NCBI GenBank assembly: GCA_035221665.1
Contig: CM069134.1
Coordinates: 20,584,001 to 20,648,000 of the forward strand
From: Okamejei kenojei
Lineage: Eukaryota
DNA: 64,000 nt
Reading direction: 5' to 3'
A program made the position numbers and the translations under genes. How positions within the stretch are numbered: the stretch's first letter is position 1; each line of letters opens with the position of its first letter. The notes beneath the pieces are model-generated. The model did not search any database. It had not been told where the DNA came from and worked only from the letters and a program-made list of their open reading frames with translations. Positions 16,784 to 59,540 of the stretch are shown piece after piece.

Positions 16784-16964
16784 AGTAGACAAAAATGCTG
16801 GAGAAACTCAGCGGGTGAGGCAGCATCTATGGAGTGAAGGAAACCCTTCTTCACCCGAAACGTTGCCTATTTCCTTCGCTCCATAGATGCTGCCTCACCC
16901 GCTGAGTTTCTCCAGCATTTTTGTCTACCTTCGATTTTCCAGCATCTGCAGTTCCTTCTTAAAA
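16784..16964 (+). mobile_element. Penelope-derived short insertion in fold-back configuration, with 14-bp TSD
   Basis: 59-bp inverted arms at 16785-16843 and 16870-16928; TSD ATAGATTCATCCAG at 16770-16783 and 16965-16978. Confidence 0.8.
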
Positions 16965-19554: not shown

Positions 19555-19839
19555 TCAAAACAACAACAATTGGTAGATTTTGTGTCATCTGTCAAACAGC
19601 AGAAAACTGTGCTGTCCACTCTGGAAGAAACTATCATTTCAAAGAAGGTGGCAACAAAAAGTGATGATGATGAAGGTAGTCTGAAACCTAAAGAGATTGC
19701 AAGACAGAAAGGAATTGAAAGCTCTGATATGGAGCCTGCCATTGAGACTTCAATGACCAAATGGAAGACTGGTGAAGAGCCTATGTTTACTATTGCCACA
19801 GCACACTATTTTACTGAGACATCGGGATCAAGATTTTTG
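19555..19839 (+). CDS. EPB41L3: Candidate EPB41L3 cassette exon (U3 region) SKQQQLVDF...EEPMFTIATAHYFTETSGSRFL
   Basis: Open acidic, S/T-rich frame of 285 nt with a good donor TTG|gtaact at 19839/19840. The acceptor (ttattag at 19554) is weak, so the 5' boundary is uncertain. Confidence 0.55.
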
Positions 19840-20370
19840 GTAACTGTTGCCTTTGACTGTCACAGTCTAAAGATAAAACGCATGACTTTCAGGCAGCACT
19901 TGCTTCAGTACGCTTAAAACAGCTAAAACCACCGTTGAGTTTACCTGCAATTTGCTTGTACCCAGCCAGTGATCCTCCAATATGGTTTTTACTTTTTTTT
20001 GCGATTACAAATTGTTTTGTTAAATTATCCACAAAATTTAGGCTTTATCGTGCTGATCCCGATTTTCATTTCACCAGATGCACACTTCATCGACTACTGC
20101 GACTTTTTGCACAGATTGTTCACTTAAGATTCTTTTGCATATCCCTTCCTCCAAGCAAATTATTTGTAATGTGTGACTTTTCTAAGTACTAACCTGTAAT
20201 CTCATCCTCTTGCCTGTTTTCCTCCTTTATTTTGCTTTTCCATACATCCTATTTAATCTTGTGCTCTCTTATTTCCAATCTGTATCTCTGAAACAACTTT
20301 TGTCTGTCTAATGTTGACCTAGTTATGTATGTCAGTTAGCTTTATATGTTGACTTTCTGTGTCTACACAG

Positions 20371-23400: not shown

Positions 23401-24500
23401 TCAGCAAATTACAGGTGCTATGTTAACCTTCCGCAAGCTGCACTGGGCGCATGTCCTTTCACCACGTGCACTGCAGCGGGCCACAACGCAGTCCCCCTCA
23501 TCACCTTGAGGACCATTTAGATGGGATGTAAATGGCTATAACTATGACGATAGTTATTAATCAGGTTGAATTGATAGTGCTCAGTGGTTCAGAGTGCACC
23601 TGTTACAGGGGCATCAGTGATATGAGGACATCCAAAGGCAAAAACTTGGAGACGCTGAATATCTGAAATGAGCCCAGAAAATGCCAGAAATACCCAACTG
23701 GTCAGGTTGCATTTATGAGGGGTAAAACAGAACCACTCTTTTGGATTGCTGGCCTTTCCATGGAATGAGTCCAACAGCGGATGATCAGAAGGTGGTTGTA
23801 TGCAGGTGCACATGAGAAAAGCTATTAAACTTGCTGAATTACATATCACATTGTGTGTAATGTGCATATCTGTCCATTTGATTTAATTGCTTCTATTACC
23901 AAAAAATATATTCTTATGCTGTGGCTATGAAATTCTTCTTCGAAGTTCACTTTCAAGAAGAGATGTCCCACTACGCCTTTTATTTTGTATCTGGGCTGAT
24001 AACCTATTATATGACAGCAAACATTTTGCATCAACCAAATCAGCCGATGGTTTGAAAACTCTCGATGACTAGATAATGTTTGAGAGGAAGGAATGTACAT
24101 AAAAATGAGTGGCAGGGTCATGAAAACAATACCATGGAGAAAAATGATTACCTAAGGAAGAAAAATTGCCTGAACATTTTTGTAATTATAGAAGACTTTA
24201 CTTTGTATACATTCTGTGCCAAAAGCATGCCATGGATCAATTGACTACATCAATCTGTGCCGTGCATATGGAATATCTTACCCAGCTTTTGACTTTAGAT
24301 TTTATCATACTTCCACAGACTGAGCATTTAGACACAATAAAAACTGAATTTTATAAGTGTACTTTTTCCATATTTAGATTTTAAAACGTGCTGGTGAATT
24401 AAAGAGGGAGTTGGCTGGTAGCTCCAAACACAACGTGTCACCATAGTAGCTATTCGGGTTTTTTTCTTACACTTTCTCACAAGAGTTTTTATCTCTCCAG

Positions 24501-24896
24501 AAACCTGATATGAATTTGGATGAGATGGTGCAACAAGAAGTCCACAAGCAGGAGAAGGCCATGAAGATTATTCAGGAGACAATGGTGATGGAAAAAAAGC
24601 ATGAGATGAATGTGCATGCAAGCGAGGATGCTTCTGCTCTGTGCGCTAAGCTGGCAGGAGATGGGAGGGAAACTTTAACAGAGGAGAGCCAAGCTCACTC
24701 ATCGGGTGATGCAAGGGGTCTAAATTGCATGGTGAACGTGGACACCAAAGAGGACAAGAGGGAGGCAGCGAGTGCCAAGGTGGATCAACCAGGAGATGAA
24801 ATTGTAGAAGGGCCACCTTCTGCTCAAGGGTGGGAGGATCAGCCTGAAATAGCAGGCAAGCCTGCAGAAAAATCTGAAACGGAACCTCAGTTTGAG
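24501..24896 (+). CDS. EPB41L3: EPB41L3 exon KPDMNLDE...IIQETMVMEKKHEMNVHASEDAS...EPQFE
   Basis: ctctccag|AAA ... GAG|gtaact, 396 nt; QET-VHAS-DAS and PxFE motifs as in human 4.1B. Confidence 0.92.
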
Positions 24897-25238
24897 GTAA
24901 CTGGTTCCCCTCACCTCCTTACCAACTTTCATAACCATCCCCATTAATCCATCTGTTTCCTCGGACACCATTATCAGCACCTGCACTGTTTATTATTTTA
25001 CAAGCAAAATCACAGCAAAACACCTTCAAATGCTTTGCAAGTAATGCCTGTGTTGAGTAATTGCTATTGAGATTTGTATCACCCGTTACGCACACCTGAT
25101 ACTTTGTTCCTGTCATCAGGTTGTTTCAAATTTAGAAACATTGGGAGCAATTTGAATCCAACATGGCTGGTAGGAAACTGATGCCAGCTCGACTTTAGTT
25201 TCCTTCAACATCAAAATCAAATAACAATATCAAACAGT

Positions 25239-25520
25239 TAAGAATAAGGGGTAGGCTATTTAGGACTGAGATGAGGAAAAACTTTTTCACCCAGAGAGTT
25301 GTGAATCTGTGGAATTCTCTGCCACAGAAGGCAGTGGAAGCCAATTCACTGGATGTTCTCAAGAGAGTTAGATATAGCTCTCAGAGCTAACGGAATCAAG
25401 GGTTATGGGGAGAAAGCAGGAACGGGGTACTGATTTTGGATGATCAGCCATGATCATATTGAATGACGGTGCTGGCTCGAAAGGCCGAATGGCCTACTCC
25501 TGCACTTATTTTCTATGTTT
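25239..25520 (+). mobile_element. CR1 LINE 3' end
   Basis: ttaagaataaggggtagg...actgagatgaggaaaaactttttcacccagagagttgtg...ggccgaatggcctactcctgc...tttctatg; reverse complement of the 3' end of the CR1 at 3.2 kb. Confidence 0.9.
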
Positions 25521-26851
25521 TTAAAATTACACAGGCAGCTGACATTTTCCTCCATGAGCAGATAAAACCCCTCACTTGGCATGCCATCTTATCAACATTC
25601 ATTTTGAAAAAACGTGTAGTAAGCTGCAGCTTAATGTCTGGCTTCCGCACACCTGCAATGCTCCGAGTTTGTCTTACGCTGACACTGTGATGCATTCTGT
25701 TTCTGATTTCATTTTGCTAATTCCATTGTGCTATAGTCAGATTATTGCAAATGACTGAGAACCTCCTGTTGTCATCTAAAACTTAAACTTCATTCCTGAA
25801 TTGATTAATTCTAATTAGACCCAAGAAATTTCTGGGTGTTTGACAACGAAAGCTTTTGAGTTTTTATTTATATATGTTGAATACATTTTGACTATAATTT
25901 ATCTTTGTATTAGAACATGCCTCAAAGCAGTTAAACTTTGTCATCTGATTTATACACAGTATTTTGCATCTCTTTTTGGGACAGTTTTGATGATTATAAT
26001 TTTATAGTTATATATCTTGAACAACTTGTTTGTATCAGGGAAGCAAATAGCAATCCACAATTGAGTATTAATAACAACTAGCATAGGCCTTGGGAACCTC
26101 AGTGCCAGGCTATGGGAGAGATGTGCCGCTGAAAGTAGATAGTCTGCACTTTGTGCCAGAAAAAAAAATGAATCTAAAATGTGTTTTAAATAAAATTGCA
26201 GATTCCTGTCCTTAAACATTATTTGCAGAATATTTTCAGACTTGCAAATAGAGGCTTCTTGCCCCTTTAGTGCTCTTGGTCACTTGAGGAATACTGGACG
26301 TACTTTGGTACGAATAGCACTTGATGTTCTCCCACAAGTTCTGTTTCCTTTATGCTGTGTGCATTCGCCACATTTACTGTGAAATAGCACAGATATAACT
26401 GGAGTCCTCGCAGTGTTAGTGAGAGAAGGCCCCCAACTGGTCACTGTATGGAATAGCAAGGTGACAATTTATTTTCCTGCCCCAATGAGCACTACTTCAA
26501 ATTCATACAAAGCAATGCAAGGTAGTAGAGCAATACAGAAACTTGCTTTTTAAAGCTATATACATGCAACAAAACGATTCCCTTAATTCCTAATCATAAA
26601 TAGCTAGGTATATCTGGATTATTTAACTTTTTCCTTAAACCATACAAGTTTATGCTAACACACTAATATTTAGGAATGTAATGGACCAGGTTTAAGTGTC
26701 GTCTATATTGGAGTCATTCTCCCAAAGAGGAAGAATATCATCATGTGCAATAAGTCCCAAACTGATATGGCATGCATTGTGGTGTAAAGGCATAGTTTGG
26801 TAATGGTGAGCCTGAAAAATGTCATAACTATTATTGTCCTTTTGCACATAG

Positions 26852-29224: not shown

Positions 29225-31200
29225 ATTCAAAGATCCCGAGAGTTATACAGTGGTGGAACAGGTCCTACAGCCCAACTCATACATGCTGACGTGCCTATAC
29301 TAATCCCAATTGCTTCCATTTGCTATCTATCGACCTATCCAAATGTTGTTTAAATGTTGTAATGGTACCTGCCTCTGCCACCTCTTCTGGGAGCTCTTTC
29401 CACATGGCCACCAGTCTCTCTGTGGAAAAACTTGCCTCTCAGATCCCCTTTAAATCTTTCCACACTTAACTAAAATCTATGTCCCCTTATTTTAGACTCT
29501 CCTAACCTGGGAAAAAGACTGTGACTGTCTACCTTATTTTTGCCCCTCATCATTTTATAAACCCCAAAAAGATCACCCCTTGGTCTCCTTTGCTCCAGAG
29601 AAAACAATCCAGCCTCTCCCACCCTCCTAACAACTCAAGCTCTTTCATCCAGTCAACATTCCTGTAAAACCTCCTGCATCCTCCAACTTAATTTGAACCT
29701 TGGCAATCAGGACTGCAGCAATTGCTCCAAATTCTTTCTCACCAATGAATTGTGCAATTGTAACATAACGTTCCAACTCCTCCACTCAATGATGATCAGC
29801 TGATGAAGCCCAATATGCCTTCCTCAACACTCTCAGGGAACGATGTACTTTGTACCCCATAGTCTTGCAGTTTAATATGCTGTCTTGCTGTTACAGAATA
29901 ATGAAAGGCATAGATAGAGTGGATGTGGAAAGCATGGTCACAGCATCAGAATTAAAGGGCGCTCTTTTAGAAAGGACGTGAGGAGGAACTTCTTTAGTCA
30001 GAGGGTAGTTTATCTGTGGAACACGTTGCCACAGTGGGCCAAGTCAGTGGATATTTTTAAGGCAGAGATAGACAAATTCTTGATTAAAACGGGTGTCAAT
30101 GGTTATGGGGATAAGGCAGGAAAATGGGGTTAGGAAGCCGAGATCAGCCATGATTGAATGGTGGAGTAGACTTGTTGGGCCGAATGGCCTAATTCTACTC
30201 CTATAACACTTGCCAGACCCTGATGTTCACTGTCTATGTCTTGGCCTCTTTTAACTTCCCAGAATGCATCACTTCCCACTTGTTCAAGTTAAATTTTATA
30301 TTTTCTCCACCACTTGCTGACCTGCTGCTCTGGTTCCTACACCATGCCAACACTAATCCTCCCAAATAACACTAGCAACTCTCCCTGTAAAGATATTGCT
30401 TCCACTCCAATTCAGGTGCAGGCCATCCCTCTTATACAAGTTCCACCTGTTCTTGAAGTGAGCCCAATGATAAATATATCTACACAGTTCATTGGCCATC
30501 TATTGGTCTTTCTATTACTTGCCACACTAGCTCATTGCAGGAGTAGTAATCTTGAAATTACAAACCTGGAGGTCTTGTGTTTGTTTAATTTACTCTGCAA
30601 ATTCTATTTGCAGGACTTCAACTTCCTTCCTGCCTATAGCATTAACACTGATATGGACCATGACCTCCCTGGCTGCTCACCCCTCTCAGAATGTCCTGTG
30701 GCCAGAGACATAACCCTATCACGAGCGAGGCAACACCCCATCCTGGAGTCTCACTTGTGCCCTCAGAAACCCATGTCTGCACTCCTGACTATAGATTCCC
30801 CATCACTATTGCTCACCTAAACGTAGGCCTATCCTGCTGTTCAGCCAAGCCCGAGATGGTGCTGGTGTTCTAGCTCGTGATATTGTTTGCCCCCGAGAGG
30901 GCATTTCCCCATCCCCCACTACCCCAGCAGCATCCAGTATTGTTAAACTTGTATGAGAGGGAGACAGCAACAGGTGACTCCAGCACCACCAGCCTGCATA
31001 TGCTGGCAATCACCCATCTTTCTGGCTGAACCTTTAGAGTGGCCACCTCCCTGAAACTAGAGTCCTCTTAGCCTCCCAAATGCTCTTCAATGTGCCAATA
31101 TACAGTTGAAAAGATTAAATGTCCTGGATTTAATGAGAAATAAATCTTAACCACCTTGCCCAATATTCACCAAATCCCACTCTTGGACCTTTTAGCAGCA
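29225..31200 (-). mobile_element. Old, internally deleted CR1 with a younger + strand CR1 3' end nested at about 29890-30210
   Basis: Degenerate CR1 3' UTR/RT at 29225-29870 and 30210-30310, upstream CR1-like sequence to about 31200; the nested copy ends ggccgaatggcctaattctactcc. Confidence 0.65.
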
Positions 31201-31219: not shown

Positions 31220-31513
31220 CCTTTAGACGCGAGAGCTACAGCGCAGAAATAGGCCCTTCAGCCCACCGAGTATGCCATCGACCAGCGTTCATCCCGTACA
31301 CTAGCACTATCCTACTCGCTAGGGACAAATTACAATTTACAGAAGTCAATTAACCTACAAACCTACACGTCTTTGGAAATGTGTGAGGAAATCGAAGCAC
31401 TCAGAGAAAATCCACATGGTCACAGGGCGAATGTACAAGCACCATTCAGAAAGCACTCGCAGGCAGGATCGAAACCGGATCTCTGGCCCTATAAGATAGA
31501 AACTCTACTGCTG
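31220..31513 (-). mobile_element. V-SINE (HE1-like)
   Basis: Same family as 2445-2715; its head is interrupted by a 120-bp insert at 31515-31635. Confidence 0.75.
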
Positions 31514-32099
31514 CTTGGCTCCTTTGCTCCAGAGAAAACAATCCAGCCTCTCCCATCCTCCTTATAACTCAAGCTCTTTCATCCAGTCAACATTCCTGTA
31601 AAACCTCCTGCAACCTCCAACTTAATTTGAACCTTCCTGTGCAGCCCTACTAGGATGGAGAATGACTTTAAAAATTGCTAACATCAACTGCATTAATGTG
31701 CTAAATGAAGAAAAAGTGGTGAAGGTGGGATATTAGCAGAGTGGATAAATCCAAAATGAGAAGAGTTATAGATAAGAAAATGTGAATCACGCAGATGCAG
31801 GGATTTTTGAAAAGTTGAGAAGTGTGAGCGGAGAGGACCGATAAAAAGGCAAATGATATTTTTGGTTTTACTTTTCAGCTTTGAAAGAAGCGGTGAACAA
31901 TTTGTACAGTACATTAATTAGATTATAAGCCTACGTGCAGTATTGTGTGTTCTTTTAGACACTCGAATCATAGAATAATACAGCCATGGGTCCTATGACT
32001 TTGCCTAAAAACTACCCAGTAGTTTACTTGCTCAGCCATTGTGATTGAGAGTTTATCTAAACTTGAGACAACTAACTATATTTGTATTCCTGTTTAAAG

Positions 32100-32905: not shown

Positions 32906-34077
32906 TCGCAGGTAAGAACATACAGCATCTGCCTGCTGTGCAGTATTGCAGCATTCTCTGCGTAGCTCCGATTTTAATTTGCAGCTTTTAACTCTATAAC
33001 CCATGGGCAAGTGCTTGGGATTGGCCTACTACCACATTTGGTTCATGAAATATAATGCTTACTTATTTAATTGATCTGGTTTAAGATTTTGAAAATATAT
33101 TGAAAATAAACAAATGTGTGTTGCACATATAGACCAAATCTGAACTGGTGCTAAATTGGCACACAATCTGTCGATGTCCTCACTTTTGCATAGAATTACT
33201 TATGGAGATCAAGACTTGTTTTGACAGGATGTATCTTCAAGGTGTTAAATGTTTGGGATGTGATACCATATATAATTAATCTGGACGACAGAAAAAAAAG
33301 TGTTTTGCTCATTTCTACAAGATAGATAGAGATCTGATCTAAAGAGTGTCCTCTATTATCATGGGAGATTATGAAACTGGGCCCAGAAAGTGCGAACAAA
33401 TTAAAATCATTTCATGTTTATCAAGTTTCATAAGGGTGAAACAAACCAGAAATATGGCACTTGTATCTCAGACAATACTACTGGCTAAAGTAAAAGCCCA
33501 AACCTAACACCATGGGCACTTAACCGATTCATTTAAATTGCACTTAAATGTGCCATTTTTCTTGCCTATCTTGTCATATTTCTTGCCTATCTTGCCATAT
33601 TACACTCAGGTTGACAGTGAGGGAGAATATAAGATTACAAGTAGTTCACAGGTTAACGGGAACAATTTATTTCAAAGATTTGTACTGTTATCAGTGGCAT
33701 GAAGAGTTGACTTACAAATGACATATACTAGGATCCATGGGTTAAAGAGTGATTTGCGTGGCTGCTTTTGGTTATTTGAAGAAATAGTTATTCCCACCCC
33801 TGTGATTTCATTAGTGTGTGTCTCTTCCTACTGTGCTTTTGCATGCATTTATCATCTCATATTTATGCCATAACCATTTCATTTTATTGACTGGAAATAT
33901 ACCATATTAAGCTTCTGTTCCATTACTATACTTATCCTTGGGAAAATGCTCTAATATCAGTAATTAAAATCGAGCATTTTTTAAGTTAAAAATAAATCAA
34001 GGGTTTAGTTAAATTAGAAAATATTAACAAGCTTGAAAAAAATACTGGCTTGTTGAAAGTTGTATTAATTTAATGGT

Positions 34078-34177
34078 AGTCTGAAGAAGGGTCGGGTCTC
34101 GACCCAAAATGTCGCCTATTCCTTCTCTCCATAGATGCTGCCTCACACGCTGAGTTTCTCCAGCATTTTTGTGTACC
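34078..34177 (+). mobile_element. 100-bp Penelope-derived insertion beginning at a hammerhead-like core, with 14-bp TSD
   Basis: agtCTGAAGAagggtc...tcgacccAAAAtGTC; TSD ATTAATTTAATGGT at 34064-34077 and 34178-34191. Confidence 0.8.
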
Positions 34178-35248
34178 ATTAATTTAATGGTGGTTATTTT
34201 TACTTCAATTAACACAATTTAAGTTTTGTACTGGGGAGTTTTATACTAAAAACCCAGGAAAAACAAAAATAGAATGTTGACGTTTTGGCATCAGGAATTT
34301 TGATTAAAAATCACATTTGCTTTGAATTACTGATTTGTCATCCGAATGAAATGGGAGGTTTAGAATGAGTTGATACTGGTCCTTTTTTCTGAAAAGGTTC
34401 TTGCAGTTCACTTGATCTCAATCGGCCAACTTTCCCTAATCACTTGCACATTAATTATTTGAGATCTCAAATAATTGATTTGCTATGCAATCCTATCTAG
34501 AAAACCCACGTTTTATCAGTTCACATTGTGGGATTAGTACCTTGGCCTTTGATTGTGGTGCTTCTGAAATCACCACTGACCTTTATAGTGTGGATTCTGT
34601 TAAATTCTTCAGGTAATTTGGAGGATTGGATGCATAATGGCCAACAATGCATGAACATTCACAACTAAGTGCACTGTTGTGGCATATTATTAGCCAATAA
34701 CTATAGCATTTCCTGAAAGAAAAATGCGGCAAGTTTGTGTGAAAGTGACATTTTTAAAATTCTTTAAAACCACGTCAAGTTTCAATGTACTGTTCGCCTA
34801 AAAACTCATCACACCGTCACGTCACATGTTGGATTGTATTCTTCTGATCCAATAATATACAATATTATCATTGCACAAATATGTAAATTGCAACTTTTGC
34901 CTTATTTTTTTATTTTAGTCCAAACTAAGCTTTTTGTTTGAATTATGTGGCTGCCTAACAATTGAACGCTGCAGTTTGCTGCTATGGACTTTTCCCAAAG
35001 TTTGCTTTTTTTTTTTGTTTCTCTCCAAAATGAGATGCATCAGCTGCAAGCTCTGACTCGTTTTGCCTTTGCATCGTGTTCTGTTATATGAAGCTGTAAA
35101 CACAAGATGGGGGTCTGCAGAATATTTTAAGAATGAGAAAGATGCAATTTATGGACATTTCAAACCAATATTGCATAGTCAGTATTTTGATATTTGTAAA
35201 TGAAATACTGATTGGAGTAATTATTGTTGTTTTATTTTCCTTTCGCAG

Positions 35249-36480: not shown

Positions 36481-36826
36481 ACTCTACTGTCTTATTCTGT
36501 TCAAAATTCTTAACATGCAGGAATTTACAAAAAATATATTTTGGAATTCTTTAATCAGCCTTGGAATTCTTTAATCAGCATTGTGGTTGTAGTGAAGGCC
36601 AAGCTATCAGCATTATTATTCCTTGAAATTGATGGTAACTTCTGGTAACCATGTGTGCAGTTAATCATACAAATCCAGAGGCAATTCTCTGCATCTGCAC
36701 TGGGCTTATTGTTAAAATCTTCACAGAGGCAATTAACACATTCAGTGACTCGGCATAAAACAACTATTACTGCACTATTCCCCCTGTTAAAAACATTGAA
36801 AATATTATGCCTTGCTGAATGAGGTA

Positions 36827-38412
36827 CAGTGGCTTGCAAAAGTTTTCATACCCCTTGAACTTTTCCACATTTTATCACGTTACAACCACAAACGTAAATG
36901 TATTTTATTGGGATTTTATGTGATAGACCAACACAAAGTGCTGCATGATTGTGAAGTGCAAGGAAAATGATACATGGTTTCCAAATTTTATTACAAGCAA
37001 AAAAACTGAAAAGTGTGGCGTGCAAAAGTATTCTGCCCCCCTGAGTCAATACTTTGTAGAACCACCTTTCGCTGCAATTACAGTTGCAAGTCTTTTGGGG
37101 TATGTCTCTACCAGCTTTGCACATCTAGAGACTGACATTTTCATGCATTCTTCTTGGCAAAATAGCTCAAGCTCAGTCAGATTGGATGGAGAGCGCCTGT
37201 GAACAGCAATTTTCAAGTCTTGCCAGAGATTCTCAATTGGATTTAGGTCTGGACTTTGACTGGGCCATTCTAACACATGATTATGCTTTGATCTAAACTA
37301 TTCCATTGTAGCTCTGGCTGTATGTTTAGGGTCGTTGTCGTGCTGGAAGGTGAACCTTCCCGCAGACTCTAACAGGTTTTCTTCCAAGATTGCCCTGTAT
37401 TTGGCTCCATCCATATTCCCATCAACTCTGACCAGCTTCCCTGTCCCTGCTGAAGAAAAGCATCCCCACAGCATGATGCTGCCACCACCATGTTTCACAG
37501 AGGGAATGGTGTGTTCAGGGTGATGTGCAGTGTTAGTTTTCCGTCGCACATAACGTTTTGCATTTAGGCCAAAAACGTCAATTTTGGTCTCATCAGACCA
37601 GAGCACCTTCCCCCACATGTTTGCTGTGTCCCCCACATGGCTTGTGGCAAACTGCAAACGGGACTTCTTATGGCTTTGTTTCAACAATGGCTTTCTTCTT
37701 GCCACTCTTCCATAAAGGCCCAATTTGTGGAGTGCACGACTAATAGTTGTCCTGTGGACAGATTCTCCCACCTGAGCTGTAGATCTCTGCAGCTCCTCCA
37801 GAGTTACCATGGGCCTCTTGGCTGCTTCTCTGATCAATGCTCTCCTTGCCCGGCCTGTTTAGGTGGACGGCCATGTCTTGGTTGGTTTGCAGTTGTGCCA
37901 TACTCTTTCCATTTTCGGATGATGGATTGAACAGTGCTCCATGAGATGTTCAAAGCTTGAGATATTTTTTTATAATCTAACCCTTCTCCACAACTTTATT
38001 CCTGACCTGTCTGGTGTGTTCCTTGGGCTTCATGATGCTGTTTGTTCACTAATGTTCTCTAACAAACCTCTGAGGCCTTCACAAAACAGCTGTATTTATA
38101 CTGAGATTAGATTACACACAAGTGGACTCTATTTACTAATTAGGTGACTTCTGAAGGCAATTGGTTGCACTGGATTTTATTTAGGGGTATCAGAGTAAAG
38201 GGGGCTGAATACTTTTGCACGCCACACTTTTCAGTTTTTTATTTGTAAAAAAATTTGAAAACCATGTATCATTTTCCTTCCACTTCACAATTGTGCGCCA
38301 CTTTGTGTTGGTCTATCACATAAAATTCCAATAAAATACATTTACGTTTGTGATTGTAATGTGACAAAATGTGGAAATGTTCAAGGGGTATGAAAACTTT
38401 TGCAAGCCACTG
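36827..38412 (-). mobile_element. Tc1 (Passport-like, DD34E) transposon copy 1; transposase pseudogene 38033-37046
   Basis: TA|CAGTGGCTTGCAAAA...TTTTGCAAGCCACTG|TA, TIRs of about 220 bp with internal direct repeats; WSDETK, HDNDPKH and [11 protein letters not shown] motifs; nonsense codon at 37298, frameshifts, and a 6-aa deletion. Confidence 0.96.
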
Positions 38413-40930
38413 TATAGCTAAGATATTAAGTATGTTCTGAGACATAATTGCTGCTAGTCCCCCAAAAATAATTTTGTATATGGAGTCTAATTGCCTGAAT
38501 AATTATTTCAAAAAAATCCATGAATTTTAAAGTTATTTTATATATTTTAAGTTTTACATATTTCAGCCTCCATGTTAATCCATATGTATGTCCCACGTTT
38601 ATGTTACTCAATGTAAAATGTTTAAAATAAAACTTAGCTTTTTACTTGGTTTGCTGTCTGTCAAAGTTTTTCAACTGAATTGGATGAAAAACCAAGTAAT
38701 TGACCACACTTTTGCCGACACGAAAGATCCACTGAAGAAGGTGCCAGGCGTGAATATACTGGGAAGATCCAGGCCGCAGAACGCACTTATTTTTGTGAGC
38801 TGAGTTCGTTGAGGTGAAAGAAGATACCACTGCTCCCAATAGCATTCTGTGTTGACAAGGAGAATTTTGAACTTTGAAAATCATCCGTCTTGATACCGTG
38901 TGAGAGTTTATCTATTTTTAGTTATATTGCAAACTGTTTTCTGATGTGGACCACAACTACTGGGAACTTGATTACAAATGCTGATTTCAGTCCATGCAAA
39001 TAAGAGTCCAGTGTGAAGATTATGATCAAGTTTAAGTCTCAGAGATCATCAGTAACAGTGGCATTTATCTCTACTTTCCTTTTAAAAATCAATATATATT
39101 CAATACAATTTATAACATTTTTGTTTCATCTAAGTAAATAAAGTAACAATGCTGCTTTGCTGGTCACTGCATCCCAGGCCTATTTAATAACTTATGCCTG
39201 AAAGGGGACTTGCATTTGAGTGGGTGTTATGCAGATAGCAATCAGAGGCTGGTGCTATGAGCTCAATAGATAAAGCTATTTTCATATAACTTCCAGTACT
39301 AATAGACACCATTGTCTCTTTAGAACACCTACTTCCACCTAGTGAGACCACAGGAATTGACAAGCGATCACTTTTGTTGACATTTGTGCAATGATTAGGT
39401 AAACATGCAGCCTTTAGTAATTTTAGTTTGCAGTAACAAAATACATTTATTGCCCTTGAAAAGACTTTTATCTCCAAATACTGCAGCAGTAATAACTATG
39501 TTATTACAAGTTGCAAATTCTACCCTGGCTGCAATCCTCTTTTCCCCATTGATACAATTGTCTTTATAATGTGGTTTTCTGTAACATCAGTTTTTTTAGG
39601 AAAGCAACTATCATGTTTTAGCACAACTGCTGGTAAAATATATTCTTATTCTTGTCCTTCAATCACTGTTAGATCACTTCCTGCTACTGCTACTTCCCTC
39701 ACAATTACTTATGCCACTCTTCTGCCTTTGATGTCCTGCTGTGTACATCTTCATTGTGAATTTGATATTGGAGACTCAACTTACTCATGATACCAGAGAA
39801 AGGTTTGGTACAAATGGAACTCACTGGGCGGGTCTAGATCCAATGTCCTTGGCAGAGCTGATGCACCTGCGAAAACCTGTACCATTCCTACCAATAATAA
39901 AACCTGTAATATTGCAACCAATATTATTCATGTGTGTGGCATCACCTTCAAGGGGAGAGAGGAGGATTACTTTTCCCATGAAACATTTCAACAAGGGTGA
40001 GAGTATGTGTTTTAAGCCCTCTCAAAGGACTTGTTAGGATCTTAGGTCTTTAGCTTTCATCAAAGAGCTGGTCACTACATCCCAGGCCTATCATACTGCA
40101 CTGATTGGTGTATGAGTGAGCTGTAGTTGAACAATGAGGAGTTTGAAGGAACCTGCCTTCAACACATATGCACATTAGCTACATCAGCATATGGTGATGT
40201 AGCTAATGGAATGATCTCTGAACAGCATGGAGGCCACATTGATGGAACTGATGATGTCAGCTCTGATTCCATTGATAAAAATTTACTCTGTTGCTATCTT
40301 GTCTTGGATCTGATGTATTTAAAGAGGAAATGAGAATGAAAGAATTCGGCCCTTACCAACTGCCCTGCCATTCATCAAGATGATAGCAGATTTACCTCGG
40401 CTCCCTAACACAACCCACCAGCCCTCGATTTAACTGATAATATATCAATTCGTCTCTGTTTTGCATTAACGACAGCTCCTCCACCGTCCTCTACTCCGTA
40501 GAGAATTTCAAAGATTAGCCACTTTGTGAATGAAGAAACTTCTTGTTTCAGTTATAAACGGCCTACCCTTCATATGGGATTCCAGGTCCCTCAATAAAGA
40601 GAAACATCCTCCTGAAACCAGCCCTACAAGCACTATAACATTTTTTTTTAAGTTTCAATGAGGTTACCACTCATTCTTCTAAATTATAGAATGGGCCCTT
40701 CAGCCCATCCTGTCCATAGTGATCATCAAGCACCCATTCATATCAGTCCTATTGACCTGCATTTTGTCCTTAGCCTACTGTGCCTTGGCAATTCAAGTGC
40801 TCATCTAGATAGTTCTTAAATGTTGTGAGAATCTCTGCCACTTCTCGGGTAGTCCAATCCAACAACTTCTACCTTAAATCCTCGTATATTCTTACTCTTA
40901 AGTAAGGACACCAAAACCATGCACCTTACT

Positions 40931-43204: not shown

Positions 43205-43311
43205 AAGATAGACACAAAAAGCTGGAGTAACTCAGTGGATAGGCAGCATCTGCGGAGAGAAGGAATGGGTGACGTTTCAGGTCGAGACTCTTCAGACTGA
43301 GGGACTTCCTA
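43205..43311 (-). mobile_element. Penelope-derived short insertion with a hammerhead-like core and 17-bp TSD
   Basis: Minus strand agtCTGAAGAgtctcgacctGAAAcGTCacccattcc; TSD CTCAG(T/C)GTCTATGGCTA at 43188-43204 and 43312-43328. Confidence 0.8.
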
Positions 43312-44873: not shown

Positions 44874-45459
44874 TTATAGATGTTTGTTCTTCTTTGGGAA
44901 ATCAGGCTGAATAATCTCAATCTGACGGACAAATAATTGAGTTTATAGCATTGACAGAGAATGAGTGTGGGGGAGGAAGGGGAAATGTTAAAGATGGTTT
45001 TCACACTCAAAATTATTTTTGCATTCCATAATGATTCTGGAAGAGTAAATAGTTTTGCTCGGTGACAGCGTTCACCATTATTGTGTCATGTGTTCAAGCC
45101 AGTTCTAACGACTAAACTAGTTGAATGCAATTTCTGTTCAATTTCATATTCTTGACGTTAAGGGAGCAAAGATGAAAGCAGTAACAAAGGGAGATGCCAG
45201 GATGATAAATTATAATGATTATGGTGGAGACAAAGGGTATCAAATATGAAGATATGGTTCAGCAGACTGAAAACAATAAAAATACAATGGCAATTGAAGA
45301 TGAATTTGAAAAAATAAATCAAGAGTCAAGTGTTTTATTGTCCTATGTCCCAGCTAGAACAATGAAATTCATACTTGCAGTAGCACGACAAAATATGTAA
45401 ACAGTGCACACTGTAAACAATGTAATAAACAAGAAAAAAAAGTTCAGCGTGCGTGTATA

Positions 45460-47047
45460 CAGTGGCTTGCAAAAATTTTCATACCCCTTGAACTATTCCA
45501 CATTTTGTCACGTTACAACCACAAACATTAATGTATTTTATTGGGATTTTATGTGATAGACCAACACAAAGTGGCGCATGATTGTGAAGTGGAAGGAAAA
45601 TGATACATGGTTTTCAAATTTTTTTACAAATAAAAAACTGAAAAGTGTGGCGTGCAAAAGTATTCAGCCCTCTTTACTCTGATACCCCTAAATAAAATCC
45701 AGTGCAACCAATTGCCTTCAGAAGTCACCTAATTAGTAAATAGAGTCCACTTGTATGTAATCTAATCTCAGTATAAATACAGCTGTTCTGTGAAGGCCTC
45801 AGAGGTTTGTTAGAGAACATTAGTAAACAAACAGCATCATGAAGCCCAAGGAACACACCAGACAGGTCAGGGATAAAGTTGTGGAGAAGTTTAAAGCAGG
45901 GTTAGGTTATAAAAAAATATCCCAAGCTTTGAACATCTCACGGAGCACTGTTCAATCCATCATCTGAAAATGGAAAGAGTATGGCACAACTGCAAATCTA
46001 CCAAGACATGGTCGTCCACCTAAACTGACAGGCCGGGCAAGGAGAGCATTGATCAGAGAAGCAGCCAAGAGGCCCATGGTAACTGGAGGAGCTGCAGAGA
46101 TCCACAGCTCAGGTGGGAGAATCTGTCCACAGGACAACTATTAGTCGTGCACTCCACAAATCGGGCCTTTTATGGAAGGAAAAAAGCTATTGAAACAAAG
46201 CCATAAGAAGTCCCGTTTGCAGTTTGCCACAAGCCATGTGGGGGACACAGCAAACATGTGGAGGAAGGTGCTCTGGTCTGATGAGAACAAAATTGACATT
46301 TATTGGCCTAAATGCAAAATGCTATGTGTGGCGGAAAACTAACACTGCACATCACCCTGAACACACCATCCCCACTGTGAAACATGGTTGTGGCAGCATC
46401 ATGCTGTGGGGATGCTTTTCTTCAGCAGGGACAGGGAAGCTGGTCAGAGTTGATGGGAAGATGGATGGAGCCAAAAACAGGGCAATCTTGGAAGAAAACC
46501 TGTTAGAGTCTGTCGGGAGGTTCACCTTCCAGCAGGACAACGACCCTAAACATACAGCCAGAGCTACAATGGAATGGTTTAGATCAAAGCATATTCATGT
46601 GTTAGAAGGGCTCAGTCAAAGTCCACACCTAAATCCAATTGAGAATCTCTGGCAAGACTTGAAAATTGCTGTTCACAGACGCTCTCCATCCAATCTGACT
46701 GAGCTTGAGCTATTTTGCAAAGAAGAATGGGCAAAAATTTCAGTCTCTAGATGTGCAAAGCTGGTAGAGACATATCCCAAAAGACTTGCAGCTGTAATTG
46801 CAGCGAAAGATGGTTCTACAAAGTATTGACTCAGGGGGGCAGAATACTTCTGCACGCCACACTTTTCAGTTTTTTATTTGTAATAAAATTTGGAAACCAT
46901 GTATCATTTTCCTTGCACTTCACAATTATGCAGCACTTTGTGTTGGTCTATCACATAAAATCCCAATAAAATACATTTACGTTTGTGGTTGTAACGTGAC
47001 AAAATGTAGAAAATTTGAAGGGGTATGAATACTTTTGCAAGCCACTG
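45460..47047 (+). mobile_element. Tc1 (Passport-like, DD34E) transposon copy 2; transposase pseudogene 45839-46829
   Basis: TA-flanked with full TIRs; ATG at 45839 (MKPKEHTRQVRDKVVEKFKAG), premature TGA at 45965, frameshifts, and the same 6-aa deletion as copy 1. Confidence 0.96.
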
Positions 47048-47065
47048 TATATATGGATATACACA

Positions 47066-48689
47066 CAGTGGCTTGCAAAAATTTTCATACCCCTTGAACT
47101 TTTCCACATTTTGTCACGTTACAACCACAAACGTAAATGTATTTTATTGGGATTTTATGTGATAGACCAACACAAAGTGGCGCATAATTGTGAAGTGGAA
47201 GGAAAATGATACGTGGTTTTCAAATTTTTTTACAAATAAAAAACTGAAAAGTGTGGCGTGCAAAAGTATTCAGCCCCCTTTACTCTGATACCCCTAAATA
47301 AAATCCAGTGCAACCAATTGCCTTCATAAGTCACCGAATTAGTAAATAGAGTCCACATGTGTGTAATCTAATCTCAGTATAAATACAGCTGTTCTGTGAA
47401 GGCCTCAGAGGTTTGTTAGAGAACATTAGTGAACAACCAATGTTCCTTGGGCATCATGAAGCTCAATGAACACACCAGACAGGTCAGGGATAAAGTTGTG
47501 GAGAGGTTTAAAGCAGGGTTAGTTTATAAAAAAATATCCCAAGCTTTGAATATCTCACGGAGCACTGTTCAATCCATCATTCGACAATGGAAAGAGTATG
47601 GCACAACTGCAAACCTACCAAGACATGGCTGTCCACCTAAATTGACAGGCCGGGCAAGGAGAGCATTGATCAGAGAAGCAGCCAAGAGGCCCATGGTAAC
47701 TCTGGAGGAGCTGCAGAGATCCACAGCTCAGATGGGAGAATCTGTCCACAGGACAACTATTAGTCGTGCACTCCACAAATCGGGCCTTTATGGAAGAGTG
47801 GCTAGAAGAAAGCCATTGTTGAAACAAAGCCATAAGAAGTACCATTTGCAGTTTGCCACAAGCCATGTGGGGGACACAGCAAACATGTGGAGGACGGTGC
47901 TCTGGTCTGATGAGACCAAAATTGAAGTTTTTGGCCTAAATGCAAAACGCTATGGCGGAAAACTAACACTGCACATCACCCTGAACACACCATCCCCACT
48001 GTGAAAACATGGTGGTGGCAGCATCATGCTGTGGGGATGCTTTTCTTCAGCAGGACAGGGAAGCTGGTCAGAGTTGATGGGAAGATGGATGGAGCCAAAT
48101 ACAGGGCAATCTTGGAAGAAAACCTGTTAGAATCTGCAAAAGACTTGAGGCTGGGGCGGAGGTTCACCTTCCAGCAGGACAACGACCCTAAACATATAGC
48201 CAGAGCTACAATGGATTGGTTTAGATCAAAGCATATTGATGTGTTAGAATGGCCTAGTCAAAGTCCAGACCTAAATCCAATTGAGAATCTCTGGCAAGAC
48301 TTGAAAATTGCTGTTCACAGGCGCTCTCCATCCAATCTGACTGAGCTTGAGCTATTTTGCAAAGAAGAATGGGCAAAAATGTCAGTCTCTAGATGTGCAA
48401 AGCTGGTAGAGACATACCCCAAAAGACTTGCAGCTGTAATTGCAGTGAAAGGTGGTTCTACAAAGTATTGACTCAGCGGGGCTGAATACTTTTGCACGCC
48501 ACATTTTTCAGTTTTTTATTTGTAATAAAATTTGGAAACCATGTATCATTTTCCTTCCACTTCACAATTATGCACCACTTTGTGTTGGTCTATCACATAA
48601 AATCCCAATAAAATACATTTATATTTGTGGTTGTAACGTGACAAAATGTGGAAAAGTTCAAGGGATATGAATACTTTTGCAAGCCACTG
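47066..48689 (+). mobile_element. Tc1 (Passport-like, DD34E) transposon copy 3; transposase pseudogene 47456-48471
   Basis: Full TIRs; left flank CA, right flank TA. D(WSDETK), D(QQDNDPKH) and E(NPIENLW) with 34 residues between the second D and the E. Two small frameshifting deletions (about 47953 and 48052). Confidence 0.96.
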
Positions 48690-48690
48690 T

Positions 48691-48692
<2 letters not shown>

Positions 48693-48746
<54 letters not shown>
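48693..48746. repeat. (TA)n microsatellite
   Basis: Pure AT dinucleotide run just downstream of Tc1 copy 3. Confidence 0.95.
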
Positions 48747-48749: not shown

Positions 48750-49604
48750 TATATATACTCACACTGACACGCACTTTTGGGGGAATCTTAAGTTTGGTCT
48801 AGTGAAGTGGACAGGAAAGAAATGGCATAAAAAGCAGACTGGGTAGTCCTATTTTCAGTGACAAAGAGGCTGTAAATTCCCCCATTATTATCTCTTCAAT
48901 GTCATAATTAAAATGTAATTTCCTTTTTCTGCATTAAAATTCACCTGCCATAGGCCCAAACAAAACATCAGCCTGCCTGAATTGCCCTGAGGTCTATTGC
49001 CGCCTTCTCATCCATACTTCCACTGTCATCAGCAAATTTATGCATCGTGCCCAATGCAGCCAAATTGAATTCATCAAAGTTATAAAATACAGCAGTGACC
49101 CTAAAGCCGCAGAATACCTCCCCCGTTCAGATATGAGTATGCATTACACCGTCAACTTGTGGCCTGGTATAAATATAAGTAGAAAGAGAAACGGAAGAAC
49201 AAATGCTTTTTTTTAATGGCTTCAGTCGTGCAAGATTACAGGATTGTGAACCCTCTATCAGTAGATGGATACCTTCTCCATTGATGTCCATGGATGAATA
49301 AAAGTTTTTGCTTTGCTATTTATAAAATTGTCTTGCACCTGGTGCCGATAGGAGTTTAGCTTATCTCCAAAGCTCTACTAAACACGTATTTCTGAGGATT
49401 AGAAATGTATCTGCGGCTATTGTCTTCAGGAAGCATGCAATCGGGTTACTGCGTGATTGTTCGCGGGATATTAAGATGTGTGAGGCACATTAGCATAGCT
49501 TACATGATGGCAGAAAGCAACAGCAATTTACCGTGAAAGAATAGTAGTTGTTTACGTAGTGAAATGTTGCCTGGTTGCTTAAGGAAAGGGTTGGAAAATG
49601 AGAT

Positions 49605-49911
49605 TTGTTTAGTTTAGAGATCCAGCGTGGAAACAGGCCCTTTGGCCCATCGAGTCTGCACTGATCAGCAATCCCCACACATTAACACTATCCTATACAC
49701 ATTAGGGACAATTTACATTTATGCCAAGCCAATGAACCTACAAACCTGTACATCTTTGAAGAGTGGGGAAAAAAACGAAGATCTCGGAGAAAACCCACGC
49801 GGTCAGTGGGAGAAGGTACAAACTCAATACAGACACCACCCATAGTCAGGATCAACCTGGGTCTCTGATGCAGTAAGGCAGCAACTCTACCGTTGCGCCA
49901 TCATGCCACCC
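49605..49911 (-). mobile_element. V-SINE (HE1-like), near full length
   Basis: The minus strand begins gggtggcatgatggcgcaacggtagagttgctgcc and ends in a (ctaaa)n-like tail. Confidence 0.8.
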
Positions 49912-51165: not shown

Positions 51166-51885
51166 TGTTTATATCAGGATTGGCTATTTATGCGTGGCTT
51201 TTCTCTCCCTATTTTTCCCTTATTTGTATATTTTGACCTTGCAGGCATGACCCAGTAGGTGAAACTATATAAATAATAGACCATTTAACATTAGCAACAA
51301 ATTAGCGGACAAAGGAGATTAAATCCCCTGCAACAGCAACGTTTTAGCCCTTTCAAAGAAAACAAATCATTTGTTCCACCCATTTTCCTCGCCCACCTTC
51401 TCTGCTCACTATAGCAACTTATTCCTCTTTTTGTCAGTTCTGATAAAGAGTTTCAGATTTGAAACATCAACCTTTCCTCTTGCTACAGCTGCTGCCTAAC
51501 CTACTGAGTCTTTCTAATGTTTTCTGTTTCTATTTTAGTCACCTGCCTTTCTTTGGTGCCAATCCATGTCCAGTGAAACACTTTGGACTATTTGTCTACA
51601 TTAACAGTGCAGAGATTTTTTTCAGTTTTCAAGTTCATTGAACTTGAAACAGGATATCCTTTGATCTACTTTGAGTAGTATCGCAGAGGTTTTGAAAAAA
51701 TGCACCTGGTTTGAACATATTTTGTCCAGTACACATCATTTTTAAGACATAAATAAGACATTTGTACAGTTTGCAGTTTTAGATGCGCACATGTTTACTA
51801 TATACTATAAAAACTTTCCATCACCAAGGTTAAACTAACTGGTTCTGTATTGCACAAAATTAACTCAAACCCCTTTCAACATAGA

Positions 51886-52017
51886 GGCTGAAGGGTCTCG
51901 ACCCGAAACGTCCCCTATTCAGTCTGAAGAAGGGTCTCGACCCAAAACGACACCTATTCCTTCGCTCCATAGATGCTGCCTCACCCGCTGAGTTTCTCCA
52001 GCATTTTTGTCTACCTT
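51886..52017 (+). mobile_element. Penelope-derived insertion with two tandem hammerhead-like cores and 13-bp TSD
   Basis: ctgaagggtctcgacccGAAAcGTC (51888-51912) then CTGAAGAagggtctcgacccAAAAcgac (51924-51951); TSD CTTTCAACA(T/A)AGA at 51873-51885 and 52018-52030. Confidence 0.8.
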
Positions 52018-53279
52018 CTTTCAACAAAGATGTTACTTTGCTATTTTCGCATCCATGATATCTCCATCTGCACCAAATGATTAGTCTATTTTAACTGTTG
52101 ACAACTTTCTTAGGACCTCCTCATTGACTTTCACTCATCTATTATCTCCATGTTTCCTCCACCAAGATTTTGACAGTATCATTCTCCCTTTCTACATATT
52201 TACAGTTCTCACCATCTCCACATGTAGATAAACACATCTGTCCCTTTCTTCCCCTGCCCCCCTCTCTCTATCAGGTCACTGTTTACATGAATATGGTAGA
52301 ATTTTGTATTCTATTCTAGGCTAACTTCTCAGATTCTCCATTTGCCCTCTTGATTTTTTGCATGCGTGGTGTTTGTTATGGATAATGTTAATCGCTGTTA
52401 TTAGCAACTGTTTTGCACCCTCTTTCTGGTAAGAAAGGGGGAAGGTGACGGCAAGATCTAGTGCTTTCCTGACATTTCCAAAGGCACAAGTGACTCACTG
52501 CAAGTCTAAAACCCAATGTTGCATGAATGTTTATACATGATTGATTTTCTGGGCTGATTAAAAATCAACTGTAGTTAGATTGCTGATATCTATGGGGAGA
52601 GAGAGAGAGCGTGATTGTGCAGAGGGATTGCAGCAATGCCGGGAGGTGAACATGCTGCCATACTTAGCTTAAGACCTCAACATGACCAGTGTGACTGAGA
52701 CAGGGTATATCTGGCTATCAAGACCATCTCAGGGAGAGACCCTGCTGGCTAGTTGGGAACTAGCTTCCCCTCATGAATTGTATACAGTGTATACAAGATT
52801 GCACAAGGCTCAGTGATCATTGGGGGAAGATCTGGCCCATTGTTCGCTGGGGCTTCTCTGCCATTCAGCATCAGTGATATCAGTAAGTTAATCACACTGA
52901 AAATTTCACTTTTTAGAAATGCATTTCTCAGATGCAATCACTGCAGGAAAAGCCACCATACATTGCCCTCTTTAATTGCCCTTGAGAAGATGATGGTGTG
53001 TCGCTGAACCACTGCCATTTTTCTGATGTAGGTACATCCACCCTCTTTCGAGGTAGAGAATTCCAGGATTAAGACTCGATGACAATAAAGGACCAGTGAT
53101 ATATTTCCACAGTAGGGTAGTGTGCAACCTGGAGAGGAACTCATGGTGGAGATATTTCCATGCTCCTTGGTGGAAGGCACCTTGGGTTTGGAAAGTGCTG
53201 TTAAGGTAGCCTAGGTGACTAAGTGCCGAGCATTTTGTAGATGTTGTGTAACAAAACTGCTGTGCGCGGTGGGGAATAG

Positions 53280-54700: not shown

Positions 54701-55036
54701 CCCATCTGAAAATTGTGACAGTGCACTCAAGGCTTTCAAAGGGTGGGGATGATATCATTCCACTGATCTGATGTTCAATACGAACATAGCTTATAGGGGA
54801 GGGAAGCATTGTTATCAGCAATACTGCCTACTGTACAAAAACTGTAACATCCAGATTCAGGAGCAGCTTCTTCCTTACAACCATCAGGCCATTAAACCTC
54901 CAAATACTCTCTGAATTACATAGACATGGGGGCATTGTATTTGTCTTCGCACTATTATTGTTTTTTTTAAATATATTTATTGTGTGAATGCAGAGGGAGT
55001 ATAGTGAGGGACTGAGAATACATATATATAGTATAT

Positions 55037-58609: not shown

Positions 58610-59540
58610 CAAAGATAGACACAAAATGCTGGAGTAACCGGGTCAGGCAGCATCTCTGAGGAAAAAAAGAAATGGGTGAAATATTTCTGGTCGAGACCCT
58701 TCTTCAGACCTCAAGGTCCATTGACTCACCTATCTTTAAGAGCTCCATCTAACTATCTTGAAAGCATCCAGAGAATTGGCCTCCACTGCCCTGAGGATGG
58801 GAGAAATTTGTGCGTCCTGGTGGGATACTAGGGAGGGGGAATGAAGGGTGCGCTGTGGAAGAAGGGGGAGGGGGGATTGTAGTTCCCTAAAATTGGAGAA
58901 TTCAATGTTCAGACAATTGGGTTGTAAGCAACCCAAGAGGAATATAATATGCAGTTCCTTCGCTTTGCGTGTGGTCTCACTGCAGCAACACAAGAAGCCC
59001 AGGCAGAAAATTCCGTTTTGGGAATGGGACGAGGACTAAATGATTAGTCACTGGGCGATCAGAAGGCCTTGGCAACCAAGTTAGTGTCATGAAACAGTCT
59101 CCAGTCGCCGACCACTTGGTTTTCCAATGTACGGGAGCCACATCAGAACTCTGGATGTAGGAGATGATTAGAGAAGTGATGTATCCTCTATATCTCAACC
59201 TGAAGACTGCTGGGTCCCTGATGCAGGTGAGGGAGGAGGTTTAGGGACAGAGTTACTCTCTTGTGTTGCAAGAGAAAGTACCCGGAGTGGTGTGTTTGGT
59301 GGGAAAGATAATAAACAAAGAATTGCGGAGGGAGCATCTCTGCGAAGCATAAATTAGTGAGGATGAGGTCACTTGGAGATACAGAAATTTCGGAGAAATG
59401 TGTTGTTGAATGCCTCTGGTGCGTGAAAGGGGTGAGAATCTGGGGAACTCTGTTGTTTTCCCATGTGGGGAAAAGACGAGCAAGAGAGCAGAACTGCAGA
59501 CGGCAAGTGAAGATTCCATCTATAACAGCAGGTAAATCCA
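58610..59540 (-). mobile_element. Penelope-like element remnant: GIY-YIG endonuclease region plus hammerhead-bearing terminal repeat
   Basis: Minus ORFs give ITSLIISYIQ...KTKWSATGDCF...PVTNHL and SETTRKAKELHIIFLLGCLQPNCLNIEFSNFR (PLE GIY-YIG C-terminus). The terminal repeat at 58612-58710 has gtCTGAAGAagggtctcgacc; a small CR1 piece lies at about 58725-58795. Confidence 0.8.

Follow-up and report, generated by a model that had tools for sequence, protein, structure and literature searches.

The 64-kb stretch of Okamejei kenojei DNA analysed here (the window) contains a short dispersed repeat, one copy of which, at 34064..34191, was inspected in detail. The original prediction had described this copy as starting 3 nt before a hammerhead CUGA box, which was confirmed, and the copy is flanked by a perfect target site duplication (TSD). 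With a profile built from the copies (E < 1e-4), the repeat was detected as 21 segments over 16 loci (L1 to L16, Table 1), which total 2020 bp and make up 3.2% of the window. Three weak profile matches (E 0.3-2.1) were excluded from this count, and the reversed window, used as a control, gave no match to the profile. All 14 repeat positions listed earlier were found to bear the repeat, and at least three sequence subtypes were distinguished by eye among the copies. A decayed open reading frame (ORF) end of a Penelope-like element (PLE) also lies in the window.

A systematic search of the flanks identified TSDs of 13-17 bp at six of the 16 loci, two of them perfect and four with one mismatch. 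An acceptance score of at least 10 was applied, which was reached at 0.1-0.2% per locus under two nulls of ~3000 random flank pairs each. Wider searches at L1, L4, L7, L8, L12, L13, L14, L15, and L16 gave best scores of 4-8, below acceptance. TSDs had been claimed at four copies; the lengths of 13-17 bp and the two perfect cases were borne out, but the number was not, as six loci carried a TSD and four of these had one mismatch. The TSD-bounded inserts measured 100, 107, 132 (partial tandem), 134 (with tail), and 181 and 212 bp (inverted pairs). The description of the units as about 100 bp long was therefore correct for two of the six inserts (100 and 107 bp) and incorrect for the other four (132-212 bp).

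Table 1. Loci of the repeat and associated features (positions in the window; C3 is the zero point of the consensus coordinates).
Feature	Position	Strand	Description
L5, inspected copy	34064..34191	+	100-bp insert 34078-34177; perfect 14-bp TSD (34064-34077, 34178-34191); starts 3 nt before C3 and stops at the main 3' end, without tail
L5, defective minimal hammerhead	34078..34115	+	CUGAnGA box 34081-34087
L5, stem II region	34088-34105	+	contains a 5-nt duplication
L5, core changes	34106; 34110	+	G12->A at 34106; C15.2->T at 34110
L5, cleavage-site homologue	after 34113	+	
L1	4685..4753	-	3' part with tail, without hammerhead; TSD search negative
L2	16770..16978	both	head-to-head inverted pair; 181-bp insert; perfect 14-bp TSD; arms 58/59 identical; tail on + arm only
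L2, ATG frame	16887-16961	+	25 codons, open up to the tail end (copy 16851)
L3	17848..18087	both	inverted pair; 212-bp insert; 14-bp TSD (1 mismatch); both arms begin ~1 nt before C3; palindromic junction near 17990; tail on - arm only
L4	23635..23768	-	old diverged copy with tail; TSD search negative
L6	43188..43328	-	107-bp insert; 17-bp TSD (1 mismatch); begins 16 nt before C3; first 7 nt read by eye as an inverted piece of the tail end
L6, core copy	43271-43295	-	all conserved core bases kept; 3 nt lost at start of stem II
L7	44782..44878	+	without tail; 8-bp match 44760/44883 at chance level (2-3%); pyrimidine-rich upstream flank
L8	51434..51554	+	old diverged copy; pyrimidine-rich upstream flank; stem II retained via one A-U for G-C change and G-U pairs
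L9	51873..52030	+	partial tandem; 132-bp insert; 13-bp TSD (1 mismatch); 35-nt hammerhead piece 51886-51920, then copy 51921-52017
L10	57957..58090	both	inverted pair; tail on + arm only; TSD search negative
L11	58565..58724	-	134-bp insert including tail; 13-bp TSD (1 mismatch); begins 4 nt before C3
Decayed PLE ORF end (linker and GIY-YIG endonuclease)	58883..59336	-	stops and frameshifts
L12	59690..59813	-	copy with tail; pyrimidine-rich upstream flank, may extend 5'; TSD search negative
L13	60288..60381	+	3' part with tail; start ~+32 from C3
L14	61671..61761	-	without tail; pyrimidine-rich upstream flank, may extend 5'
L15	62309..62402	-	degraded copy, without tail
L16	63082..63402	both	outward-facing arms 63082-63166 (-) and 63291-63402 (+), ~125 bp apart; tail sequence on + arm only

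The 3' ends of the segments fell into two classes about 30 nt apart. Relative to C3 (C3 = 0), 10 of the 21 segments ended at +86 to +93, and another 10 carried a tail and extended to +110 to +122 in consensus coordinates; one segment ended internally, at +35. Head-to-head inverted pairs were observed at four of the 16 loci, two of them inside a single TSD, and in all four pairs the tail was confined to one arm. At one locus (L9), a partial tandem was found inside the TSD. Heavy 5' truncation, partial tandems, and an inverted 5'-truncated copy have been described as a signature of PLEs, whose insertions carry a tail of 30-40 bp at one end (PMC8557442; PMC3846280), and most PLE insertions are reported to be 5'-truncated with one terminal repeat (bioRxiv 10.64898/2026.07.22.740005). 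The anatomy of the repeat is that of PLE 3' ends.

The majority consensus, derived from a star alignment of the 21 segments, contained CUGAAGA, one extra A, a G-C-closed stem II, GAAA, a palindromic CG, and UC. All the boxes named in the original prediction (CUGAnGA, GAAA, stem II, the GUC triplet, and a palindrome in the place of stem III) were present in it, and the predicted stem I of about 2 bp was also found, at 2 bp. A stem II of 5 bp with a 2-nt loop had been proposed, but it is not a permitted fold in ViennaRNA, which folded the consensus stem II as 4 bp with a CUCG loop. The consensus has CUGANGA, GAAA, A15.1-U16.1, H17, G10.1-C11.1, and palindromic 15.2/16.2, and it fits the PLE minimal hammerhead of Fig. 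S3 in PMC4209133, down to the additional base that separates A9 from stem II; the assignment to the PLE-type minimal type I hammerheads thus agreed with that figure. The consensus core sits 90-125 nt from the 3' ends, i.e., near the 3' end of the pseudo-LTR (pLTR).

The individual copies were all found to be defective. A search with the full hammerhead descriptor gave no exact match in the window, and no copy had the core and stem II both intact; with one mismatch allowed, three matches were obtained, one of which was a family copy (34081). As a control, 10 Markov-resampled windows gave no exact match and 0-1 one-mismatch matches. The claim of at least one core mutation in each copy needs correction: at 43271-43295 the core bases are all retained and 3 nt of stem II are lost, so that the copies are better described as defective throughout. 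G12->A was observed in 5 of 17 copies. CpG positions differed from the consensus more often (45/166) than other positions (194/1699), as expected from neutral decay, and non-CpG core positions differed less often (11/171) than non-CpG positions elsewhere (183/1528, which include subtype differences; Fisher p 0.03). Among 14 aligned copies, 78.8% of cells were paired, a value reached by 3 of 500 shuffles, whereas the covariation score was reached by 30 of 500 shuffles and was not significant. Stem II showed a single two-sided change, and most of the changes in stem I fall in unaligned flank. The suggested check against Rfam hammerhead models gave no support, since no hammerhead family was among the 27 window matches at E<=10, and none of the four matches to 51860-52060 (the L9 region) was a hammerhead. 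Matches to miRNA families at 16806-16907 and 46964-47149 were below the gathering scores and were rejected as inverted-repeat artefacts. Judged from sequence comparison, the motif belongs by descent to the PLE minimal type, and self-cleavage is a putative activity.

To examine the link to PLE proteins, homologues of the ORF relic at 58883-59336 were sought. A Pfam scan of its three frames gave no family, and a word-based homologue search yielded 36 candidates, none of which was significant. An exhaustive search with the relic gave 19 relatives; the best match was a Rhinoraja (skate) gene model, and the longer relatives were reverse transcriptase (RT) + GIY-YIG proteins of Rhincodon, Mobula, Stegostoma, and Chiloscyllium. 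A GIY-YIG match above the Pfam cut-off was obtained for one of the eight relatives scanned, and the protein P0021 mapped to the relic at E 1.8e-10 (tblastn). These similarities indicated that PLEs are present in this genome, and they point to a cartilaginous fish, perhaps a skate, as the host. The relic and L11 are ~160 bp apart; because L11 is bounded by its own TSD, the two are separate insertions, and their interpretation as one element was ruled out.

The translated repeat was compared with 6905 12-residue windows in 26 proteins, which had been chosen by GIY-YIG similarity only. The top two matches were the C-terminal ends of P0022 (score 41) and P0013 (score 28), and the next best score was 23. 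In P0022, an RT + GIY-YIG protein of Stegostoma tigrinum, the motif lies ~120 residues after the endonuclease, with 9 of 14 residues identical. Both matches are short and belong to species other than O. kenojei, and P0013 may derive from a spliced model; indirectly, they would locate the motif 3' of PLE ORFs in related genomes. None of the copies is contiguous with a PLE ORF in the window, which contains no RT sequence of this family. Given the TSDs, the inverted pairs, the optional tail, and the link to GIY-YIG proteins, mobilisation by a PLE RT/GIY-YIG protein, as originally proposed, is very likely.

The 5' boundary of the TSD-bounded inserts was unusually uniform. In five of the six TSD-bounded inserts, the 5' start or inversion point lay at -4 to +1 of C3: at -3 in L5, -2 in L9, -4 in L11, about -1 in both arms of L3, and +1 in the inverted arm of L2, the last being read by eye as an arm with an internal deletion, for which the automatic alignment gave +33. 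The sixth insert, L6, starts at -16. The clustering had a p value of 4e-4 to 2e-6 against a uniform null over 100-400 nt, which is a crude null with a post hoc bin and n = 6. Starts at +12, +13, +32, +59, and +67 were seen in other copies. Randomly distributed insertion ends had been named as evidence against the original prediction; the 5' ends of the TSD-bounded inserts were not random.

Upstream of this boundary, the 300-nt flanks of 12 C3-containing copies showed no significant similarity to one another, and the one pair above the null was a self-overlap. Pyrimidine-rich upstream flanks were found at 4 of 13 C3-anchored positions (L7, L8, L12, and L14), in the top 2.4% of windows (p ~2e-4), and none of these four copies is TSD-bounded. 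The composition of these flanks hints at longer copies that would run into the 3' UTR; such copies are suggested by base composition alone, because the upstream flanks are unalike.

We consider it probable that the units are the 3'-terminal 100-135 nt (the pLTR end) of endonuclease-positive (EN+) PLEs of a cartilaginous fish, present as very short, 5'-incomplete insertions. A comparable picture has been given for other animals, in which most minimal hammerheads were dispersed single motifs "probably related to truncated PLEs" and some formed opposite-strand pairs (PMC4209133). The GIY-YIG endonuclease of the PLE would cut the target with a stagger of 13-17 nt, which corresponds to the TSDs observed. 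The PLE RT would then start inside the RNA, ~90 or 120-125 nt downstream of C3, and produce copies without or with the tail; the two 3' end classes are observed, and internal initiation is assumed from an Anolis PLE. Synthesis of the cDNA would usually stop just past the hammerhead, and the product would join the target directly; otherwise, the cDNA may restart or fold back, a presumed route to the inverted pairs and partial tandems seen in the window. The hammerhead would be a passenger of the pLTR, the template would be uncleaved RNA, and the copies would decay later. As the template we favour RNA of full-length PLEs of several subtypes over separate short masters, which is the least certain step, and the reason why synthesis would stop near C3 is likewise presumed. 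Four points count against this explanation. The uniformity of the 5' ends goes far beyond what random truncation would produce; the upstream flanks share no significant similarity and no copy is joined to a PLE ORF in the window; the protein link consists of two short translated matches in other species; and a search with the ATG frame of the repeat as the query found no PLE N-terminus, with none of the 14 candidates at E<=10.

Some of these points also bear on a second explanation, according to which the repeat is an independent non-autonomous PLE derivative. Short masters carrying the RT-binding and initiation signal would be transcribed from near -4 and mobilised in trans in a SINE-like manner, for which cleavage would be unneeded. 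This would account for the tight 5' ends, for the density of 16 loci per 64 kb versus one ORF relic, and for upstream flanks without common sequence, and the in-frame stop that interrupts the ATG frame in the copy at 4753 is also in its favour. Moreover, non-autonomous PLE families are known in Chlamydomonas (PMC8557442), and a short 5'-truncated RNA was enough as a template in vitro (PMC11167929). However, at least three subtypes, judged by eye, have this boundary in common and would have had to originate independently more than once; four copies seem to extend upstream, starts at +12, +32, and +59 occur as well, and no promoter was identified. On balance, we regard such a derivative as rather unlikely, although it deserves consideration.

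The original prediction had called the units retrozyme-like. In a retrozyme, the hammerhead would cleave as a dimer, a model summarised in PMC6765202, and the resulting unit RNAs or circles would be reverse transcribed by the PLE enzyme. Animal non-LTR retrozymes are 150-450 bp tandem repeats, mostly with a canonical type I motif complete in each unit (PMC7229834), and they yield linear and circular monomers (PMC7229834; bioRxiv 10.64898/2026.07.22.740005). The present units resemble them in being short, non-coding, and pLTR-related and in carrying a type I hammerhead, and animal retrozymes also have long TSDs when TSDs are present (PMC7229834; bioRxiv 10.64898/2026.07.22.740005). The proposed origin of animal retrozymes from PLE pLTRs (bioRxiv 10.64898/2026.07.22.740005), the type I core intact in the consensus, the better conservation of non-CpG core positions (11/171 vs 183/1528), and the two adjacent cores in L9 are in keeping with this explanation. 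However, no start or end of the 21 segments lies 3 nt or less from the cleavage site (+27/+28), the nearest ends being at +32, +33, and +35, which largely refutes it. Unlike the known animal retrozymes, the repeat formed arrays of full units at none of the 16 loci, L9 being a partial tandem of two defective cores, and its core is minimal: the canonical type I motif has a helix I of ~6 bp and a loop 1-loop 2 contact, whereas helix I here is 2 bp. In addition, in the dimer predicted from the consensus the palindromic stem II arms pair intermolecularly and helix III does not form, the natural core pair of L9 is not predicted to fold as a double hammerhead, and the covariation score lies within the range of the shuffles. 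The term retrozyme-like is therefore not supported, because cleavage-site ends and full-unit arrays are absent from the window. These results indicated that the inserted RNA spans the cleavage site uncut and that cleavage does not shape insertions in this window, and a retrozyme is accordingly highly improbable. Still less credible is an accidental hammerhead likeness in an unrelated SINE or other short repeat: the negative Rfam results for the window and the L9 region and the lack of an intact copy agree with it, but the consensus fits the published minimal hammerhead exactly, the descriptor had no exact match in the 10 Markov-resampled windows, and the insertion structures are PLE-specific and accompanied by the GIY-YIG link.

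The uniform start at -4 to +1 possibly marks an RNA 5' end or a splice acceptor. In the Penelope element of D. virilis, a 75-bp intron, which starts 46 bp downstream of the transcription start (PMC2377424), extends to 4 nt before C3 (PMC4209133), so that spliced and unspliced RNAs differ in the flanks of helix I. By analogy, the pyrimidine tract and the CAG at -4 to -2 could form a 3' splice site in the position that it has in the D. virilis element. In the TSD-bounded inserts L9 and L11, G-G replaces A-G at stem I. A more speculative proposal, which we think doubtful as a whole, combines three parts: -4 to +1 would be a true RNA boundary, the dominant TSD-flanked products would be "strong-stop" cDNAs of 100-135 nt, and the ribozyme would depend on splicing. 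The RT-initiation signal would then occur twice in the PLE RNA, and the RT would start at the 5' copy and either run off the RNA 5' end or halt at the splice junction before the hammerhead, with splicing lengthening stem I. The function of the PLE hammerhead is described as still open (PMC8557442, PMC11167929). With sharp TSD-defined ends and a high copy number, this family could allow cleavage, splicing, and transcription start to be tested against one another from genome data alone.

The motif was also compared with known systems. Like the minimal type I PLE hammerheads of PMC4209133 (Cervera and De la Pena 2014), it has CUGANGAH, a G-C-closed helix II preceded by an unpaired base, GAAA, palindromic 15.2/16.2 without loop 3, and UH, and it likewise occurs as dispersed single motifs and opposite-strand pairs. 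Helix II is 4 bp, and helix I, at 2 bp, is at the short end of the range given there, where D. virilis and Culex also lie. In contrast to that set, the present motif comes from a cartilaginous fish, and no chondrichthyan is among the species in the Fig. S3 alignment or Table S1 of that paper.

Internal RT initiation has been shown for the Poseidon PLE of Anolis carolinensis (PAc), in which the ORF opens at stem II of the hammerhead, the RT begins 111-118 nt into this ORF, and two start sites enclose the tail (PMC11167929, Frangieh et al. 2024). Hammerhead mutants of PAc insert normally, cleavage by the ribozyme requires the protein, and the cleavage site coincides with no RNA-seq read ends (PMC11167929). 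The present repeat resembles PAc in that the hammerhead lies ~100-130 nt upstream of the 3' ends, the two 3' classes are separated by the tail, and no ends occur at the cleavage site. Unlike in PAc, the sole candidate ATG here is ~50 nt downstream of C3, and the search with its frame linked it to no RT ORF. The fixed 5' end near the CUGA box was seen here and is not reported for PAc in the passages of PMC11167929 consulted.

Inverted pLTRs with a palindromic junction, one TSD enclosing the whole structure, and an optional tail, of 31-34 bp there, are shared with Penelope of D. virilis and Adineta vaga (PMC2377424, PMC3846280). The pLTR of A. vaga holds 12 codons, or 22 with the tail (PMC3846280), compared with the ATG frame of 25 codons up to the tail end here. 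Penelope of D. virilis likewise has a 2-bp helix I (PMC4209133), and in the present family the intron is only a candidate. The TSDs differ in length, 13-17 bp here versus 8-10 bp in the A. vaga examples (PMC3846280), as do the units, 100-135 bp here versus pLTRs of ~200 bp in D. virilis and A. vaga (PMC2377424, PMC3846280).

In the literature searched, neither a cartilaginous fish member of this family nor a fixed 5' boundary at the hammerhead was described; the family may already be catalogued in repeat libraries such as Repbase or Dfam. Penelope is not mentioned in the skate genome texts searched (passages of PMC12361510 and three supplements of PMC10115646). A first DNA scan of prokaryotic genome contigs for host-contaminated repeat copies gave no match, and a second contig scan gave six matches of about seed length only, which were taken as chance. 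Minimal hammerheads of PLEs and truncated PLE termini have been found in many animals, and the present repeat thus extends them to a cartilaginous fish. Its identification helps to annotate ~3% of the window, which is vertebrate-like with ~39% G+C and also contains LINE pieces and Tc1 transposons.

The 3' half of the repeat, whose copies are probably 3' ends of Penelope-like elements (PLEs) with a minimal hammerhead, was predicted to form a hairpin at 16884-16961 and homologous positions. The 5' arm of this predicted hairpin could pair with alternative partners, located either upstream of the main 3' end or inside the tail, the extra 3' stretch carried by some copies. The predicted hairpin was considered a candidate structure for recognition by the RT.

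Nine of the 21 repeat segments were packed into 5.5 kb (about 57900-63400). Single-base indels were numerous in the copies of this interval and may represent assembly error rather than biological decay. It was also observed that the similarity between a degraded copy without a tail (L15) and one of the two outward-facing arms of locus L16 extended past the 3' end of the element (62277-62440 and 63046-63082), and that the shared sequence sat in a short C-rich repeated context. This likeness is possibly the result of local duplication.

The decayed PLE endonuclease was followed by a pyrimidine-rich stretch and a LINE-like fragment. A PLE endonuclease fragment was also found inside two skate gene models, P0001 and P0026 (neuromedin-U receptor 1 and a myocardin isoform), indicating either exonisation or an annotation artefact.

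Other features of the window

Feature	Positions	Strand
Decayed PLE linker and GIY-YIG endonuclease	58883-59336	-
Tc1/mariner-type transposons (1.6 kb each)	36825-38416, 45456-47061, 47065-48707	
LINE-like 3' fragments, mutually related (66-82% identical)	3177-3688, 11581-12094, 25234-25524, 29966-30204	
Second dispersed repeat (200-300 bp)	2446-2649, 15654-15855, 29579-29701, 31232-31635, 49604-49900	
Open frames with many acidic and serine residues	7355-7939, 19555-19917, 24450-24947	+

The three open frames are possibly exons of a host gene; a Pfam search of these frames returned no significant match. An island rich in G+C (54%) at 56000-58000 may be a promoter region, and local tandem duplications were noted along with it (55029-55830 and 56213-56408).

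The three Tc1/mariner-type transposons, for which Pfam gave a DDE_3 match, shared 93-94% identity and carried terminal inverted repeats of about 215 bp, and two of them adjoined each other. The LINE-like 3' fragments are presumably of the CR1 type. The second dispersed repeat, whose copies were 70-81% identical, is probably a SINE.
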